Shown here in pieces: positions 4,684 through 24,637 of a stretch of DNA of 25,097 nt (within the stretch, counting starts at the first letter, position 1; each line of letters begins with the position of its first letter). The notes beneath the pieces are model-generated. The model ran no database searches. It saw only the letters and a list, made by a program, of their open reading frames with translations, and was not told where the DNA came from. The DNA lies in IMG/VR virus record IMGVR_UViG_3300020045_005401, positions 1-25,097 of that record; one strand, written 5' to 3'. The translations under genes were made by a program, and so were the position numbers. The stretch comes from a virus. Its lineage: Duplodnaviria > Caudoviricetes.

Positions 4684-5961
4684 ATGAATTCGATTCAAGC
4701 CCTGCGTGAGCGCCGCGACCAACTGGCGCAAGCCCTGCACACCCTCGTCGATAAAGACAAGACGCCGGAGTGGAAGCCCGAGCACGAGACACAATACCAA
4801 CAGGCGATGGCCCAGATCGGCGCCATTGATGGCGATATCAAACGCCACAACGATGCGATGAACATCATCGCGGCCGGCGCGCTCAATGGCGTTGTACCGG
4901 ACTCCATGCGCGATCAATTCACGCGTACGCCCGGCGCACACGGCGCCGAATCGGGCGCGCTGCGTGCATACCTCTCGGGCGGCATGGCCAACCTGCAGCC
5001 CGAGCAGCTCAACGCCATGCGTCAGCGCCAGTCCGGCGACATCGCCAACGCCATGCGCCTGCCGCAGGCCGCCATGAGCACCAGCACGCCGGCCGAAGGC
5101 GGTTATACCGTGGCCACCGAGTATTACCGCCAGCTGGCCGAAGCGCAGAAGTCTTTCGGCGGAATCCGCAACGTGGCGACGATTATTCAGACCGGCACCG
5201 GCGCGCAGATGAATTTCCCGACTGCCGACGCAACGTCGGAAATCGGCGAAATCGTTGGGCAAAATGGTCCAGTGACATCGGGGGATACGACCGTCGGCAA
5301 TATTTCGCTCGACGTCTACAAGTACTCGTCGAAAAAGATCGCTGTTCCGTTCGAGCTGATCCAGGATTCGATGTTTGACATCGAGGGCTACATCAACGCC
5401 ATCCTGGCACTGCGCCTCGGTCGGATCACGTCCCAGCATTTCACGATCGGCACGGGCTCCAGCCAGCCGCGCGGGATCGTAACCGCATCGTCTGCGGGGA
5501 AAATCGGAACGACCGGCCAGACGCTGTCCGTTATCTACGATGACTTCATCGACCTGGAACACAGTGTGGACCCGATCTATCGCGTCGGCCCGAAGGTCGG
5601 CTATCTGATGCACGACAGCTCGCTCAAGGTCGTTCGCAAGATCAAGGACACCCAGGGCCGCCCGATCTTCGTCCCAGGTTACGAAGCAGGCAATCCCGGC
5701 GGCGCTCCGGATCGCCTGCTCAATCGCCCGATCTATATCTCGCAGGAGATGCCGATCATGGCCGCCAACGCCAAGTCGATTCTCTTCGGCGACTACAGCC
5801 GTTACCTGATCCGCGAGGTGATGGACCTGACGCTCTTCCGTATGGCCGACAGTGCCTTCATCCTCAACGGCCAGATCGGCTTCGTCGCCTTCAATCGCCA
5901 GGGCGGCAACATGATCGACGTCGGCGGCGCGGTCAAGTACTACGCCAACAGCGCAACCTGA
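4684..5961 (+). CDS. Major capsid protein, HK97 fold, with N-terminal scaffold (delta) region
   Basis: Start reassigned to ATG 4684 (GGAG RBS); 425 aa; GGYTV, ELIQDS.FDI, GTGS.QPRGI, IKD.QGRPIF, LFGDYSRY motifs. Confidence 0.95.
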   Translation: MNSIQALRERRDQLAQALHTLVDKDKTPEWKPEHETQYQQAMAQIGAIDGDIKRHNDAMNIIAAGALNGVVPDSMRDQFTRTPGAHGAESGALRAYLSGGMANLQPEQLNAMRQRQSGDIANAMRLPQAAMSTSTPAEGGYTVATEYYRQLAEAQKSFGGIRNVATIIQTGTGAQMNFPTADATSEIGEIVGQNGPVTSGDTTVGNISLDVYKYSSKKIAVPFELIQDSMFDIEGYINAILALRLGRITSQHFTIGTGSSQPRGIVTASSAGKIGTTGQTLSVIYDDFIDLEHSVDPIYRVGPKVGYLMHDSSLKVVRKIKDTQGRPIFVPGYEAGNPGGAPDRLLNRPIYISQEMPIMAANAKSILFGDYSRYLIREVMDLTLFRMADSAFILNGQIGFVAFNRQGGNMIDVGGAVKYYANSAT

Positions 5962-6353: not shown

Positions 6354-6647
6354 ATGACCATCCGCTTGCTCGCTGCCTACGGCAAATATCCATGCAATGC
6401 CATCGTGACGCTCGACTCCGCTACAGAGGCGGGCCTCATCGCTGCGAAGCAAGCGCTGGCCGATTTGACTGGGGGCAGCGCTTACGTTGCGCCAGCTCCC
6501 CAGAAGCAGTCGTTCCCGGTTATGGGTGAAGTTGATCTCACCGGGGGGATTAGAACTTTGGCCGTCTTGACTCAGGCTCAGTACGACGCGCTCGTCGCTG
6601 GCTCGGGCGTTGATGAGTTCACCAATTACAAAATCGTTGCGGCGTAG
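6354..6647 (+). CDS. Small putative virion adaptor / decoration protein
   Basis: AAGGA RBS; 97 aa; C-terminal LTQAQYDAL....D..T.Y.I motif reminiscent of phage fibre-attachment modules; left inverted repeat lies inside it at GGIR. Confidence 0.7.
   Translation: MTIRLLAAYGKYPCNAIVTLDSATEAGLIAAKQALADLTGGSAYVAPAPQKQSFPVMGEVDLTGGIRTLAVLTQAQYDALVAGSGVDEFTNYKIVAA
6545..6555 (+). repeat. Left arm of 11-bp inverted repeat (putative recombinase site)
   Basis: GGGGATTAGAA, exact reverse complement of 7969-7979. Confidence 0.65.
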
Positions 6648-6649
6648 TC

Positions 6650-7966
6650 ATGGCTGAGTACATTGGGTCGCGCCCGGTTATCCGGGAGTACATTGGCACA
6701 AGGACTGTGATTGCGGATTATTTTAACGGGGTGAATCTGCTGAGTGCTGTATCAGACGTGCCATCATTTCTACGCATGGTTACTGTAACAAACGCAACGG
6801 AGTCAGGATCCGGGCCGTACACCTACACAGCGACCGCTGTGGGAGGCTGGTCAGGCGGGGTCAATGCGATGCTTTCCAATGGAGCGGACGGCTATATCAC
6901 ATCAAGGCTGGTTGCATCACCGTCCGCGTACTGCGGATTGGGGTTCCGGTCGGTACAGGACGGTGGGGCGTACACGACCTTCCGATACTCGATTATGGCG
7001 GACACAGGGCTGACGTCGTACAAAATAGGAATCGACGCCGCTGCCGGAATTGCGCTCAATATCTCCCCAGCAACGCTTCCCGCGCTGAACGACAGGCTGA
7101 AAGTCGAGCGCGTAGGTACGAACATAAACTTCTATGTTGCCCGAAACGCCACGCCGACGACTTGGATTCTGGTGCATACGAAAACCTCCGCAGTGACGGT
7201 TCCGCTGTTCCCCGGTTGGTTCGCCAACGCCTCCGGGTCGGCAATGGAGATTGGAGAGTTTAGTGGTCTGACCCAGTATGTTCAGTGGGTTAGCACGGCT
7301 GTGGCCCTGACGATGGACGGCAACTCGTTGGTGTATGGCTATCGGAACCCCGGCCCCGGCGTGACCGTTGCTCAGAACCTCATCAGCGATGTCGCAAGCC
7401 CTCTCTACGGTTCTGGAATGACCGTGACTAACAGTGGGACAAGTGGCAATACTTGGGTGATGATGACGGGCGGCGTGCCGAACTATACAGCGAACCGGAT
7501 CAACGTATGTGTCGCATGGGAGGGTACGAATTCCATTTGTGCGGGACGAACCGGGCTAGAAGCTGCCACGGATGCAGTGACTTACATTGCTACGCTGAAA
7601 GCCGCAAACCCGTTGTGGCGCGTGGTGCTTATGACTTGCCTGCCGCGACAGGGCGGGTTCGCAGCATGGGGGTCAATCGCAGGACTCAACGCACAGATCG
7701 ACGCCTACAACGCCCATCTCCGCGCGAACTACAAAGCAATGGGCGCGTGCGCTCTGTGTGATGTGCGACCCGCTGGAGGGGTATTCGACATGGGAGGCGA
7801 CTACTCAATTGCGAGTTTTGATGCCTGTGATACTCGCGCTGGCGGAACGGTTTGGCTGGAGGCGTCAGGAGGTAGCGGGCGTATCCACATGACCGACTTT
7901 GGCGACACGAAGATCGCGGCGCTGCTTGAGCCGGTCTTGGCTTTCGTCACGTTGCGCGATAGCTGA
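6650..7966 (+). CDS. SGNH/GDSL-hydrolase domain protein with beta-rich N-terminal domain (putative virion-associated esterase / receptor-binding protein)
   Basis: 438 aa; block I DGNSL, block II NSGTSG, block III EGTNS, block V variant GRIH; N-terminal EYIG.R.VI tandem repeat; codon usage visibly less GC3-rich than neighbours. Confidence 0.8.
   Translation: MAEYIGSRPVIREYIGTRTVIADYFNGVNLLSAVSDVPSFLRMVTVTNATESGSGPYTYTATAVGGWSGGVNAMLSNGADGYITSRLVASPSAYCGLGFRSVQDGGAYTTFRYSIMADTGLTSYKIGIDAAAGIALNISPATLPALNDRLKVERVGTNINFYVARNATPTTWILVHTKTSAVTVPLFPGWFANASGSAMEIGEFSGLTQYVQWVSTAVALTMDGNSLVYGYRNPGPGVTVAQNLISDVASPLYGSGMTVTNSGTSGNTWVMMTGGVPNYTANRINVCVAWEGTNSICAGRTGLEAATDAVTYIATLKAANPLWRVVLMTCLPRQGGFAAWGSIAGLNAQIDAYNAHLRANYKAMGACALCDVRPAGGVFDMGGDYSIASFDACDTRAGGTVWLEASGGSGRIHMTDFGDTKIAALLEPVLAFVTLRDS
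6656..6715 (+). repeat. 30-nt period tandem repeat at the start of the SGNH gene
   Basis: GAGTACATTGG at 6656-6666 and 6686-6696; protein EYIGSRPVIR / EYIGTRTVIA. Confidence 0.7.
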
Positions 7967-7968
7967 TT

Positions 7969-7979
7969 TTCTAATCCCC
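7969..7979 (-). repeat. Right arm of 11-bp inverted repeat (putative recombinase site)
   Basis: TTCTAATCCCC, starting 2 nt after the SGNH stop codon and ending 44 nt before the recombinase ATG; partial second copy ATCCCCT at 7985-7991. Confidence 0.65.
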
Positions 7980-8023
7980 TTACCATCCCCTCTGCACCGT
8001 CGTCTTTTCCATGAAAGAGTCAG

Positions 8024-8923
8024 ATGGCCGGATTTTTGGCAGCGACCATCGGTCGGGTTGTTCCAAAATACCGGACACTCAGCCAGTGGGCCGAAACCTA
8101 CAGGCTGATAATCAACAGCAAGCCGATCTCGTACAAAACTAAGATTAATAGAGCGAGCAGTCTAAAGCACATCCTCGCCGGCCTCGGCGAACGCAGCGTC
8201 GGGGCCATCCGGCCGCACGAAGTGTCGGCGATGGTACTGGCGATCTACGCGAAAAGCCCGCAGACCGCAAAGAGGGTACTGATCGAGGTTCGCGACTGTT
8301 TCGGCGAGGCGATGAATTACGGCTGGATCGATCGCAACCCGGCACTTGGCGTCAAGATCCCCGCCGTTCATGTGCAGCGCCATAGGCTTACTTTGGACCA
8401 GTGGTGGTTGATCCTGGGCTATGCGCTTGAACACATGCCCGCCTGGGTGCAGCGCATGCTGGCCCTGGCGTTGATTACTGGGCAGCGGCGCTCAGACCTG
8501 GTCAAGATGAAGTTCAGCGACGTTTGGGCCGATCATCTCCATGTCGAGCAGATGAAAACCGGTACGAGGATCGCGCTGCCATTGGCGCTAAGGCTCGATG
8601 TCGTCGGACTATCCCTCGGTGAATTGATCGAGGATTGCCGGGGATACGCTGTTGGCACCGAGTACTTGCTCAGGAAGCATAACGGCTGCCGGCTCGGTGA
8701 TGCGTCGCTCTCGGCGCGATTCGAGACCGCGCGAGAGGGCGTGCTTGACCCAGTTGCGCACCCGCCGTCGCTGCATGAATGCCGCTCTTTGTCCGAACGG
8801 CTCTATCGAAAGCAGGGGCTCAATACCATGACGCTCCTGGGGCACAAGCATCAAGCCATGACCGACATGTACAACGACGACCGAGGCCTATCGAAAGGAG
8901 AGTGGAAGACGCTCTCCATTTAG
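8024..8923 (+). CDS. Tyrosine recombinase, lambda-Int-like, lacking the N-terminal arm-binding domain
   Basis: 299 aa; LALITGQRRSD (R), MKTG (K), HECRSLSERLY (HxxR), LLGHK (H), MTDMYNDDRG (Y), resembling lambda Int catalytic motifs; begins at the core-binding region. Confidence 0.93.
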   Translation: MAGFLAATIGRVVPKYRTLSQWAETYRLIINSKPISYKTKINRASSLKHILAGLGERSVGAIRPHEVSAMVLAIYAKSPQTAKRVLIEVRDCFGEAMNYGWIDRNPALGVKIPAVHVQRHRLTLDQWWLILGYALEHMPAWVQRMLALALITGQRRSDLVKMKFSDVWADHLHVEQMKTGTRIALPLALRLDVVGLSLGELIEDCRGYAVGTEYLLRKHNGCRLGDASLSARFETAREGVLDPVAHPPSLHECRSLSERLYRKQGLNTMTLLGHKHQAMTDMYNDDRGLSKGEWKTLSI

Positions 8924-8956: not shown

Positions 8957-9529
8957 ATGCCGTTGATCCAGATCACCGCGCCGGCTACCGAACCGGTCAG
9001 TATCGCCGAGGTCCTCGATGCGTCACGCTGCGACGATGCGGCTTTCACGGCGCAGGCCACCATCGTCATCAAGGCCCTGCGTCGGCATGTCGAGGGGCGC
9101 CTGGGGCGCGCACTGGTTTCTCAGACCATGGCGCTGGTGATCGATGCATTCCCCCGCGGAGAAATTGATCTGTGGCTGCCGAGCGTGCAGCGCATCGTTG
9201 CAATCAAGTACGTCGATATCGACGGCGTTCAAAGAACCCTCACCGAATCGGCCTATGTGCTCGATCCATCAAGCACGCCCAGCCGGGTATTCCCGGCATG
9301 GCAAACGAGCTGGCCGCAGACGCGCGGGTCGCCGAACGCCGTGCGCATCGAGTTCGTGGTGGGGTATGGCGATGCCGCGGATGATGTCGAAGAGGATATC
9401 CGCTTGTGGATCATCACGCACGCCACTCAGATGCTCGGTAGCCCTGACGGACTGATCGACCAGCAATTCAAGCCGCTGCCGTTTGTCGACCAGCTGCTCG
9501 ATCCGTACATCGTCTATCGGGCGTATTGA
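8957..9529 (+). CDS. Head-tail connector protein (phiE125 gp8-like)
   Basis: P..EPVS..E, GRALVSQT, WP.T...PNAV.I.F..GYG motifs; GAGGA RBS. Confidence 0.88.
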   Translation: MPLIQITAPATEPVSIAEVLDASRCDDAAFTAQATIVIKALRRHVEGRLGRALVSQTMALVIDAFPRGEIDLWLPSVQRIVAIKYVDIDGVQRTLTESAYVLDPSSTPSRVFPAWQTSWPQTRGSPNAVRIEFVVGYGDAADDVEEDIRLWIITHATQMLGSPDGLIDQQFKPLPFVDQLLDPYIVYRAY

Positions 9530-20535: not shown

Positions 20536-21060
20536 ATGGATCGCGCACATTTGAGCGGGGCTTCCGGAACTGCACCCACGGCGCCGGCCAGCCCATCAAT
20601 CGGCTACCCGACAGCCGGCAGCCCCGGCATTTCCGCGCCGACAGTTCCAGGCCCTTACCTTTATCACATGCTGATCGAAGAATTATTGGCCATCGTCATC
20701 GCTGGTGGGATCACACCGGCGCAGGGTACGCTTAATCAGGTTCTCCAGGCGCTACCAGCGGCTCTTGCCAGCCGTCCGGAAATGGGGCGATCTTTGGGAG
20801 AAAGTGGCTATCAAAAACTTCCTGGAGGGCTAATTCTTCAGTGGGGCCAGACAGGAGTAATTTCGAATGGAGGCAACGCAACAGTAAGTTTTCCAATTGC
20901 ATTCCCGGCGGCGTGCTATTCGATTCAGGCAATGCTCTCGTTGTCATCAAACTTAGCTTCCGCAGAAGTCTGCGGTGGAATGCCGATATCACTCAGTCAA
21001 GCTAGATTTTACGTTTACAACGTAAGTACATCGGTATATTGGTTCGCGGTCGGGAAATAG
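20536..21060 (+). CDS. Short tail fibre protein with C-terminal gp53-like domain
   Basis: 174 aa; N-terminal EEL...V...G..P....NQV anchor, GYQKLPGGLILQWG and FPIAFP..C motifs, ends WFAVGK. Confidence 0.85.
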   Translation: MDRAHLSGASGTAPTAPASPSIGYPTAGSPGISAPTVPGPYLYHMLIEELLAIVIAGGITPAQGTLNQVLQALPAALASRPEMGRSLGESGYQKLPGGLILQWGQTGVISNGGNATVSFPIAFPAACYSIQAMLSLSSNLASAEVCGGMPISLSQARFYVYNVSTSVYWFAVGK

Positions 21061-21070
21061 GGAGAAAACC

Positions 21071-21403
21071 ATGCTCTACTCAAAATTGACAAGTGGCTTT
21101 TACACCAAAGAAATTCACGGCGGAAATATTCCAGCCGATGCTGTTGAAATCACCCAAGAAGAATATAGGAGCCTGCTTGCCGGCCAGGCCGCTGGTAAGA
21201 GAATTTCTGCTGATGCGGATGGCAAGCCTATTCTGACCGATCCAGACCCACTTACACCTAATCAGATCACAATTAGCCAGATCGTAGCGCTTGAATCCAC
21301 AGTTACAGAACGTCGAATCCGTGAGTCAGTCCTTGGGATCGACGACGGCTGGCTCCAGTCCTTGAATGACAAGATCGTCGCTCTTCGCGTTGACCTGACA
21401 TAG
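21071..21403 (+). CDS. Tail fibre assembly protein-like
   Basis: YS....GFY...IHG..IP.DAVEIT..EY..LL.GQ..GK.I motif; follows fibre gene; GGAG RBS. Confidence 0.8.
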   Translation: MLYSKLTSGFYTKEIHGGNIPADAVEITQEEYRSLLAGQAAGKRISADADGKPILTDPDPLTPNQITISQIVALESTVTERRIRESVLGIDDGWLQSLNDKIVALRVDLT

Positions 21404-22521: not shown

Positions 22522-23039
22522 TGGACTGGAAATCGATCATCAGCAGCATCGCGCCGATGCTTGCAACGGCTCTCGGCGGGCCGCTAGCGGGGCTTGCAGT
22601 TGAGTCGCTTGGCAAGGCGCTTGGAATGGATCAGCCGACCGTCGCGAAGGTCAAGGAAGTATTTATACAAGGGTCTCTGACCGGTGATCAGATTGCACAG
22701 ATCAAAGCGGCCGAACTGGCGCTCCAGGTGCGAATTCGTGAACTGGATATCAGCGAGCAGCAGCTTTACGCAGTGGATCGAGACAGCGCGCGGAAAATGC
22801 AGATTGTCACGCAATCAAACTGGCCGGGCGTTCTATCGGCGATCACCACGGCGGCAGTGCTTGGGGTTATCGCGGCGCGCATGTCAGGGATGGCGATTCC
22901 GGAAGATGCAACGACGACGCAGCTGATCGGCTCACTGACGACGGGCTGGGGGCTTTGCTTGAGTTATTGGTTTGGCACGACGCGCGGCTCGAGCGAGAAA
23001 AGCCAGTTGCTGGCGCAGTCGCTGCCGCCGGCCTCTTAA
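22518..23039 (+). CDS. Putative holin (3TM-type)
   Basis: AP.LATALGGP.AG, DRDSAR, two C-terminal hydrophobic helices and YWFG...GS..K; follows endolysin. Confidence 0.7.
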   Translation: MMDWKSIISSIAPMLATALGGPLAGLAVESLGKALGMDQPTVAKVKEVFIQGSLTGDQIAQIKAAELALQVRIRELDISEQQLYAVDRDSARKMQIVTQSNWPGVLSAITTAAVLGVIAARMSGMAIPEDATTTQLIGSLTTGWGLCLSYWFGTTRGSSEKSQLLAQSLPPAS

Positions 23040-24637
23040 TCCCGCTGCGCCACCCAGGCGCCCGTCTTTCGATCGATCCTCAGCTGCCGAATCGCGCCGC
23101 CCATGCCGATCAGCAGCAGGTCGATGTGTTTTCCCTCGTCGGGGTCCATGCCGCGATGATAGATAACGATTCGTTCAAAGGTCTCACCGACCATCTGCCG
23201 AATGCTAATTCTTGAGTCGTAGTCGAGCATCAACGCGCTGGTCTTGAGTGCGCCCCATTGCTCGGCGATCGCCGGAGTATCGCGGCGGCTTGCTCTGGAC
23301 AGCTCGGCATTGGCCAGCGCTTCGTCACGCTTAGCCTCGCCCAGTTGCGACTCAATTTCACGCGCTTTTCGCACAAAGGCGAGTGGGGTCGCTTCATCGT
23401 CGGCCAGCAGCGCCGCCGTGACGCGGGTTAATTGTTTCTCGAGGTCGGCAATCGTAGTCCGTGCCCCGGCCAACGCTGCCCGACTGACTGTCATGTGATC
23501 GCCGTCGGTATCCAGGGAATTCAGGTTCAATTGATCGCTACAAAAGGCGAATAGTGCGCGTTCGACCGGCACAACCGAAACACTCCCCCCCACGCTACAT
23601 CTGACGCCCAGGCTGTTCGAGCTGCACATCAACCGACGATGACCATCCTGCGGCGTTCCGTCCGGCTTTTTATTGTGTGTCATTAGATTCTGCCCGACGA
23701 CGGCAGCACCGCAATAGCCGCAATACAGAATTGACATTCCGGTGATCAGGCCCGGTATTTGCCCTTTGACCTTCTGTTTTTTTCTTGCTTCATTGGCCAC
23801 CTGGAGACGCTGGTAATTCTGTTCGTCGATCAGCGGCGGATAGTACCCGCGCAGTTCGAATACGTCGCCATCGAGCTCGAGCGTCTTTGTGCCGATAATA
23901 TCTTGCCGCTTGAGGATCTTGTAGAACGTCTGTCCTGTAGTCGGGAAGCTCTCAGGTGAAAAACCCCTCTCGATGAGTCCGATCATCACGCGCTTTGCCC
24001 CGTTCCCCTGAAGGAACAATCCAACCGCTGCGCGCATCGCATCGGCACGATCGGAGACAAGATCAAACGTCGTGCCATTCCACTTCACCCATGCGGGATC
24101 TTTACCGTTCCGGATGATTCCGCGATACGTCCCCGCTTGCCATGCCAGACATTGTCGCCGGATCGCAGCCTTGACGCGCTTGCTTTTGGTATCGCTCTCC
24201 TCATGCGCGCGAATCATCACCAACAGCGAATAGACGAGGTCCATGGGCTGCGCCTTGAGCGATGCCCGGTTGTATTCACGGCTGTCGGACGCCGTTACCA
24301 CCGTAATCCCTGCATTGACGATCTGCGCGAGCTGGGCCTGGGCAAGGACGGGCTCGGCCCTTGATAGGCGATCGAGCCCTTCGACGACCAGGACTGAACC
24401 TGGTGCAACGAGACCGGCATCGACGCTGCGCAGGAACGCACCCAGGGCGCCTTGAGTGATGTGCCGTTGGTGGTACGCTGATAGTCCCTCGTCACGAAGC
24501 GACAGCGTGGCGTCCAGGACCATTCCACGATCCTTCGCCCAGCGCTCGGCATAGGCCAATTGCCGATCGGCAGAACTGCCCAATGCCTGTTTTGGATCGG
24601 AAAATCGGAGATAGCTGTATACTTTCGCATTACTCAT
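23036..24637 (-). CDS. Large serine recombinase (phage integrase)
   Basis: 533 aa; catalytic YLRFS, EGLDRLSR, recombinase domain, zinc ribbon CGYCG...C...C and coiled coil. Confidence 0.95.
   Translation of the reverse strand: MSNAKVYSYLRFSDPKQALGSSADRQLAYAERWAKDRGMVLDATLSLRDEGLSAYHQRHITQGALGAFLRSVDAGLVAPGSVLVVEGLDRLSRAEPVLAQAQLAQIVNAGITVVTASDSREYNRASLKAQPMDLVYSLLVMIRAHEESDTKSKRVKAAIRRQCLAWQAGTYRGIIRNGKDPAWVKWNGTTFDLVSDRADAMRAAVGLFLQGNGAKRVMIGLIERGFSPESFPTTGQTFYKILKRQDIIGTKTLELDGDVFELRGYYPPLIDEQNYQRLQVANEARKKQKVKGQIPGLITGMSILYCGYCGAAVVGQNLMTHNKKPDGTPQDGHRRLMCSSNSLGVRCSVGGSVSVVPVERALFAFCSDQLNLNSLDTDGDHMTVSRAALAGARTTIADLEKQLTRVTAALLADDEATPLAFVRKAREIESQLGEAKRDEALANAELSRASRRDTPAIAEQWGALKTSALMLDYDSRISIRQMVGETFERIVIYHRGMDPDEGKHIDLLLIGMGGAIRQLRIDRKTGAWVAQRD

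Follow-up and report, generated by a model that had tools for sequence, protein, structure and literature searches.

What does a tyrosine recombinase do among the structural genes of a phage that also carries a serine integrase? The question is raised by a virus record of 25 kb (IMG/VR record IMGVR_UViG_3300020045_005401, positions 1 to 25,097, hereafter the window), which encodes a serine integrase and, among its structural parts, a head of the HK97 type, a contractile tail and a short tail fibre of its own, and in whose head block a 97-aa adaptor gene and the gene of an SGNH protein are followed by a tyrosine recombinase gene. The original prediction, made from the DNA alone, took an 11-bp inverted repeat around the SGNH gene for the ends of a switch or swap cassette run by the adjacent enzyme. 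Here we describe two sites, L and R, which border this cassette and its counterparts in other phage loci and between which cargo has been replaced. The explanation that we consider probable is that an arm-less recombinase of the lambda type exchanges the cassette between phage genomes, L crossing with L and R with R by way of a cointegrate, and that it often does so in trans.

Anatomy and pairing of the L and R sites

The repeat itself was confirmed, with GGGGATTAGAA at positions 6545-6555 and its exact reverse complement at 7969-7979, as were the three open reading frames (ORFs) of the adaptor, the SGNH protein and the recombinase and the C-terminus claimed for the inverted state, which inversion in silico reproduced. 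So was the accompanying caveat that 11-bp matches arise by chance: the window contains 251 inverted repeats that are exact over at least 11 bp, and when the 2.57-kb region was simulated 200 times, at least one turned up in 80% of the copies. On its own the repeat is at chance level, and it gains its meaning through relatives, which reveal it as the inner arms of two longer sites of 10-7-10 layout, both of the pattern TCTAATCCCC-N7-GGGGATTAGA, with conserved and differing 7-bp spacers. The locus comprises the following features:

4684..5961, plus strand: major capsid protein of the HK97 type (PF05065), upstream context.
6354..6647, plus strand: adaptor gene (ORF, 97 aa), with a constant anchor, then the in-frame L site, then a cassette-borne TQAQYDAL module.
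6354..6494, plus strand: anchor domain, aa 1-47 of the adaptor, with a predicted L9-N-like fold.
6528..6554, plus strand: L site, read in frame as L-T-G-G-I-R; outer arm (degenerate) 6528-6537, spacer TCACCGG 6538-6544, inner arm GGGGATTAGA 6545-6554.
6545..7990, plus strand: exchangeable cassette of about 1.45 kb, as delimited by contigs of relatives that cover both flanks, one of them joining 6551 to 7985.
6650..7966, plus strand: cargo gene, SGNH protein of 438 aa (PF13472, E=4e-9).
7970..7986, plus strand: upstream R-like copy, arm TCTAATCCCC plus TTACCAT, 3 nt past the cargo stop.
7981..8007, plus strand: R site with standard spacer; arm 7981-7990, spacer TCTGCAC 7991-7997, outer arm degenerate; the best match to the consensus.
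8024..8923, plus strand: tyrosine recombinase of 299 aa (PF22022 and PF00589).
8957..9529, plus strand: head-tail adaptor (phrog_442, TIGR02215), downstream context.

Sequence logos give each site the form of a 10-7-10 palindrome whose inner arm is strong and whose outer arm is weaker, and conservation ends within about 27 bp. The L spacer, TCACCGG, is read in frame as L/V-T-G-G-I, and the R spacer, TCWGCAC, lies at the cargo stop; L was in frame in 61 of 62 cassettes, and an ORF stop fell at R in 57 of 63. The window has two overlapping copies of R. The right arm of the original prediction (7970-7979) belongs to the upstream copy, whereas the second copy, which has the standard spacer, is where relatives re-enter the window (7985-7990); the upstream copy is likely the scar of an offset exchange. 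Similarly doubled R sites lie upstream of the recombinase in loci L001, L085 and L150, with a similar stretch between the copies, and may record the origin of new cassette ends.

Loci with too little flank, and recombinases more than 95% identical to another, were dropped before the sites were counted. R (TCTAATCCCC-TCWGCAC) was found within 220 nt upstream of the recombinase in 47 of 68 non-redundant family loci, as against 3 of 40 distant integrases; the first of these counts is not independent, the R consensus having been derived from the same 68 loci. L (TCACCGG-GGGGATTAGA) stood upstream in sense in 27 of the 36 loci, the window included, that have R and enough flank, compared with one locus in antisense and two in which it lay downstream. 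A search by L alone gave 34 loci, 32 of which have R downstream at 1.2-2.6 kb (antisense control, 2/34), and the remaining two match R at 12 of 17 positions. Searching by R alone, L was met at 14 or more of 17 positions in 28 of 68 loci (antisense, 0/68), and many of the R-found loci that lack L are probably chance matches of the 15-mer. The exact 17-mer of the window's L had two matches, one of them by chance (L363). Cassette length across the family ranges from 835 to 3276 nt with a median of 1.6 kb, and the same borders occur in siphophage-, myophage-, Mu-like and podophage-type gene contexts. The expectation that homologs of the recombinase would be preceded by such sites and a variable cassette was borne out in many family loci, but the conserved MTIRLL start proposed as the general anchor was not: many unrelated anchors were found, and MTIRLL anchors also occur without sites (L075-L079, L083).

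A conserved protein hairpin (D/N-P-x-T-G) accompanied by a chance repeat would offer another reading of L, and the chance level of the repeat is in keeping with it, as is a V-x-A pattern upstream of L whose conservation is limited to codon positions 1-2. However, the synonymous codons are fixed. Where a peptide-defined N/D-x-L/V/F-T-G motif has R downstream, it uses the codons ACC-GGG in 39 of 59 cases, as against 17 of 84 without R, and GGG accounts for 12% of the Gly codons in the window; this preference shows a constraint on L at the DNA level. Considering also the conserved R at or after the stop, the pairing of L with R and the two non-crossing spacer pairs described below, we reject the hairpin reading as a full explanation of the sites, although the motif may have a role in the protein as well. 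A second D-L-T-G-G in the anchor, at 6465-6476 of the window, has ordinary codons and is conserved in the site-less MTIRLL proteins; the site may originally have been captured by such a sequence.

Cargo replacement between the sites

Of all pairs among the 63 cassettes, 16 reach 70% or more in at least one tested segment; 15 of these have only the outside flanks in common, and the last has everything. Five pairs have the same flanks with other cargo, both flanks being 0.76-1.0 identical and the insides 0.43-0.49. L286 and L298 are 100% identical on each side and 43-48% inside; L092 and L272 have outside identities of 99% and 90%; L372 and L419 likewise combine the same flanks with different cargo. 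The converse is given by L376 and L405, in which one cassette is 90.7% identical from L-8 to R+8 and nothing else is in common. L087 and L181 agree at 99% up to R and at 52% beyond it, with arm and spacer in common and the flank not, while L102 and L103 have spacer and flank in common and the arm not; taken together, these two pairs place the crossover in the spacer.

The same is seen for the window. Contigs of close relatives from two public runs track it to 6537, 6551 or 6553 and then continue in other DNA, one of them with an L site of its own; one contig joins 6551 to 7985, and others rejoin the window at 7990. Absent coverage inside the cassette was not counted as evidence, except for the contig joining across it; among runs screened as the source of the window, the best contained 0.25 of its words, and a further run (X2) gave a single contig. 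The window's two-gene TQAQYDAL module begins at L behind three unrelated anchors (including those of L003 and L144), and its anchor carries other cargo in L074, L296 and L479. The cassette-exchange option of the original prediction is thus strongly supported by the conserved sites, the change of content at the GGI junction and the base-precise borders, but the system is wider than had been proposed, being restricted neither to the head operon nor to close relatives.

The other option was an ON/OFF switch by inversion, of the Gin or FimB/E type. The inner arms are indeed inverted, an arm-less tyrosine recombinase adjoins, and a phage precedent exists in Rin (PMC6109161). Nevertheless, all 63 cassettes are in sense, as are all 32 found by L alone (the two sets overlap), and only 0 or 2 of the 7 spacer positions agree once L and R are aligned in inverted orientation. 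Neither extra cassettes on either strand nor silent alternative segments were present in the 63 and 32 loci, and no strand-change joint was listed among the contigs aligned to the window, though contigs drop rare forms. A longer antisense frame is found in L402, one of 30 loci of a second spacer group (see below), yet this locus aligns in sense to L381. We consider inversion very unlikely.

In direct alignment the spacers of L and R match at 3-4 of 7 positions, the first 2-3 bases being common to both. This would suit a cassette circle excised by recombination of L with R across mismatched spacers, in the manner of a Tn916-type integrase or an integron, and reinserted at an empty anchor site; the doubled R sites resemble the scars of such insertions. 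The L and R spacers, however, are fixed across unrelated phages and do not depend on a target, no tandem arrays occur among the 63 loci, and a narrow test with one empty-site pattern returned 0 matches, which together make the circle improbable. L389 holds a mini-cassette of 188 nt between L and R, a near-empty state.

The cargo of the window consists of a short beta-rich start, a predicted beta-sandwich (aa 40-205) and an SGNH esterase domain, in which Ser226, Asn294 and His413 are present and the usual Asp three residues before the His is replaced by Gly410. The model has a predicted local distance difference test score (pLDDT) of 84 and finds its best structural matches in carbohydrate esterases; fold and catalytic Ser and His suggest that the protein acts as an SGNH esterase. 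Across the family the cargo domain is a carbohydrate esterase, hydrolase or lyase in 31 of 61 cassettes. Pfam matches, obtained for 33 of the 61, comprise 20 SGNH, 3 SASA, 3 polysaccharide deacetylase and 2 GH5 domains, along with single cases of a rhamnosidase-type glycosidase, GH43, a polysaccharide lyase, CotH, and Mtd plus reverse transcriptase. The CotH kinase domain is the cargo of L297 (3339-5513, minus strand). The Mtd-like protein and the reverse transcriptase lie in a 3.1-kb L-R cassette (L149, 3878-6582), whose cargo is apparently a whole diversity-generating retroelement.

For the anchor of the window, modelled at pLDDT 86-97, the best structural Z was 5.4, and the match to the C-terminal domain of lambda gpFI (2lsm) is weak (Z 3.7, root-mean-square deviation 1.4 over 37 residues). 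The anchor may be a small L9-N- or gpFI-like domain, a tentative assignment, and our guess is that it binds the capsid. Atlas and viral fold searches with the adaptor gave weak small-domain matches only, and a PF24243 match at aa 68-81 is weak and below the cut-off; among 75 anchors, 70 had no match in either library. Structural deacetylases on phage particles are known (PMC8471582, PMC9569702), and the cargo product would presumably be displayed on the virion or capsid.

The claim that the enclosed DNA differs in codon usage held for the SGNH gene, with a GC content at third codon positions (GC3) of 0.64 compared with 0.80 in the core genes (p=2e-12). Outside the repeat, however, the anchor (0.67) and a 109-aa gene (0.63) are also low in GC3, so that codon usage is no marker of the cassette borders. 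A promoter and terminator scan gave chance-level results only. A second variable module, without these sites, is formed by the very short tail fibre (174 aa) and its chaperone at 20536-21403 of the window, where GC3 is low (0.5).

The recombinase and the cassettes without it

The recombinase aligns to residues 75-350 of lambda Int (E=9e-46) and thus has the core-binding and catalytic domains and no arm-binding domain; a stop lies three codons upstream of its start. R156, K178, H251, R254, H274 and Y283 are present, and across 46 homologs the catalytic residues do not vary. Matches in the PDB are all lambda Int (5j0n, 1p7d), identity to the lambda integrase family is 37-40%, and no IntI model was among the NCBIfam results. 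As the window also encodes a large serine integrase, right behind the lysis genes (23036-24637, minus strand), integration does not require the tyrosine recombinase of the head block. At least 1182 relatives were found among 8000 candidates scored, their named hosts being mostly Azonexus, Dechloromonas, Denitromonas, Zoogloea and Comamonadaceae; the cultured hosts carrying the system are Dechloromonas agitata DSM 13637 and Denitromonas iodatirespirans IR-12. Among cultured phages, no record exceeded 41% identity over most of the recombinase (30 best and 60 spread of 166 rows), and none had a DNA match to the adaptor.

In a tree of 89 proteins every labelled site falls inside one clade (57 rows, 99/97). 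Within it, 38 rows form a TCWGCAC group (100/97) and 11 rows a CTCGCGC group (100/99), the latter with two long branches, and there is a small third group. Scanning for the CTCGCGC site yielded 65 loci, and the L spacer of this second group, CGGGTGG, was present in 31 of 42 non-redundant CTCGCGC loci (antisense, 1/42), three loci having supplied the motif. The two spacer pairs form separate key sets that do not cross: the first L occurs in none of the 42 CTCGCGC loci, and the second L in none of the 68 first-group loci. A third key set is probable in L109, L111, L180, L190 and L191, with R spacers such as GTTGCGC and an L that reads S-D-G-G or S-D-S-G. Outside the cassette clade, the arm-less L105, L108, L147 and L188 have another motif, CCCGGCGG(T/G)TTCCGGG, 20-60 nt upstream of the recombinase, and a metagenome-assembled genome (MAG) labelled Alistipes encodes four arm-less relatives (L152, L154, L160, L162), of which the two checked lack cassette sites. 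In L114/L373 and L178, R and the recombinase are separated by a 109-aa ORF, and related small ORFs follow R in the enzyme-less L284 and L301.

The exchange that we favour would involve phage genomes that meet in one cell. The spacers being different, L would recombine poorly with R, and the cassette would be neither flipped nor lost; L of one genome would instead cross with L of another to give a cointegrate, and R with R would resolve it, leaving the cargo swapped and the anchor kept in frame. A lone crossover would reassort whole genome arms as well, and single-site crossovers such as those of L393/L417 and L087/L181 fit a cointegrate, without showing one. The enzyme would serve in trans many phages that have sites but lack the gene. 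The product of the cassette would be a polysaccharide-modifying appendage displayed on the virion, the adaptor of anchor and TQAQYDAL module in the window holding the SGNH esterase.

Several observations weigh against this account. The recombinase adjoins in 4 of 29 L-first, 0 of 120 R-first and 7 of 65 second-group loci, where it should be noted that 47 of the 120 R-first loci hold less than 600 nt downstream. No PF00589 gene is present in 30 of 34 whole records, including the near-complete cassette genomes G007, G014 and G026; the other four records have one, in no case of this recombinase family, and swaps occur in pairs without the enzyme (L286/L298). Site-less arm-less relatives exist outside the clade, and the window's own outer arms are degenerate. 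In L150/L181 and L101/L106 the differences reach 7-20 nt past L into the flank, for which a clean crossover would not account, and pairs with two homologous flanks could also come from general recombination. Because linkage alone could produce spacer groups that follow the enzyme clades, the agreement of spacer and clade supports enzyme action and does not prove it. Finally, 28 of 61 cassettes are without a Pfam match, and only 4 of 75 anchors are annotated as capsid cement, decoration or other head proteins.

The enzyme-less cassettes fit action in trans, yet they are also the main opening for a rival in which L and R are real exchange points used by some other activity, be it a host recombinase or homologous recombination at short boundaries, with the adjacent enzyme a passenger or a binder of R as operator. 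The distance of R from the recombinase start, 10-150 nt, would agree with the latter role. On the other side, the sites are limited to one enzyme clade and the spacer pairs shift with subclade, moves between unrelated flanks, precise to the base, have about 17 nt of homology available, and the arms are by eye unlike the XerC/XerD sites in Table 1 of PMC13141974, the spacer here being 7 nt and not 6. L272 is L092 minus the recombinase gene, lost by deletion, which shows that enzyme-less loci can be derived. A single Azonexus MAG contains two cassette prophages: one has the enzyme, and the other, whose head is of the window's type, has just the sites. We therefore regard use of the sites by another activity as unlikely, though worth keeping in view. 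As for the adjacent lambda-Int-like enzyme proposed to drive the system, the match to lambda Int stood, without the arm domain, but most cassettes have no recombinase alongside, and its action on the sites is what we infer.

Relation to known systems

In engineered recombinase-mediated cassette exchange, heterospecific lox or FRT sites combine the same arms with two incompatible spacers and give a double reciprocal exchange; the principle is alike, here natural and coupled to protein fusion. Integrons also have a recombinase beside the cassette, with a stop codon often within the site, but the enzyme here is not IntI, the sites, conserved over about 27 bp, hardly suggest a long attC hairpin, and no arrays were seen. 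The overlap of lambda Int is 7 bp, as long as the spacer here. The recombinase shares sequence and catalytic residues with the lambda integrase family (5j0n, 1p7d; PMC8138268), from which it differs by having no arm-binding domain, by its location within structural gene blocks and, in the window, by the presence of a separate serine integrase.

The dif modules of Acinetobacter Rep_3 plasmids, with pdif sites and XerC/XerD (PMC13141974), have two-armed flanking sites with differing spacers too, and a single module is replaced between replicons through a proposed cointegrate, for which like spacers are needed on each side; in the present system, too, like spacers are kept on each side of a replaced module. 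As described there, they rely on the host XerC/D heterodimer, on 11-6-11 sites, on whole genes and on plasmid arrays, whereas the present system has a phage enzyme of the lambda type and a single cassette between 10-7-10 sites, one of which lies in frame inside a gene, and its spacer pair is constant across unrelated phages. The Rin shufflon of Bifidobacterium prophages (with Min, Gin, Cin and Rci) also places an arm-less tyrosine recombinase beside a virion gene with a constant N-terminus and a variable C-terminus, one site lying in the gene and one at its 3' end; according to the same account, Rin inverts among silent C-termini of the same genome at identical sites (PMC6109161). Here there are no silent copies, the sites differ, inversion is unseen and new cargo would come from other genomes. 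The system thus works like the replacement of dif modules and is built like the Rin shufflon, and it departs from the defining features of both and of integrons. What would be new is spacer-keyed cassette exchange acting inside a gene and across unrelated phages; among the literature matches listed, which left subscription papers and bioRxiv supplements outside coverage, there was no description of this recombinase family or motif.

The swapping of receptor-binding and depolymerase domains in phages is usually attributed to illegitimate or homologous recombination. Here the borders are exact to the base and linked to a single enzyme clade, so that the idea of linker sites dedicated to joining phage modules can be put to the test. 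If the enzyme works as proposed, it would also be a small recombinase that needs no accessory factors and has incompatible site pairs in nature. Beyond the single locus, we lean towards a shared plug standard across unrelated tailed phages, in which a lambda integrase that has shed its arm domain swaps enzyme or receptor modules, in one case an entire diversity-generating retroelement, in frame between genomes in the same cell at two spacer-keyed sites, with service in trans and at least two non-crossing key sets. If true, such a common standard would let phages change which bacterial coats they attack.

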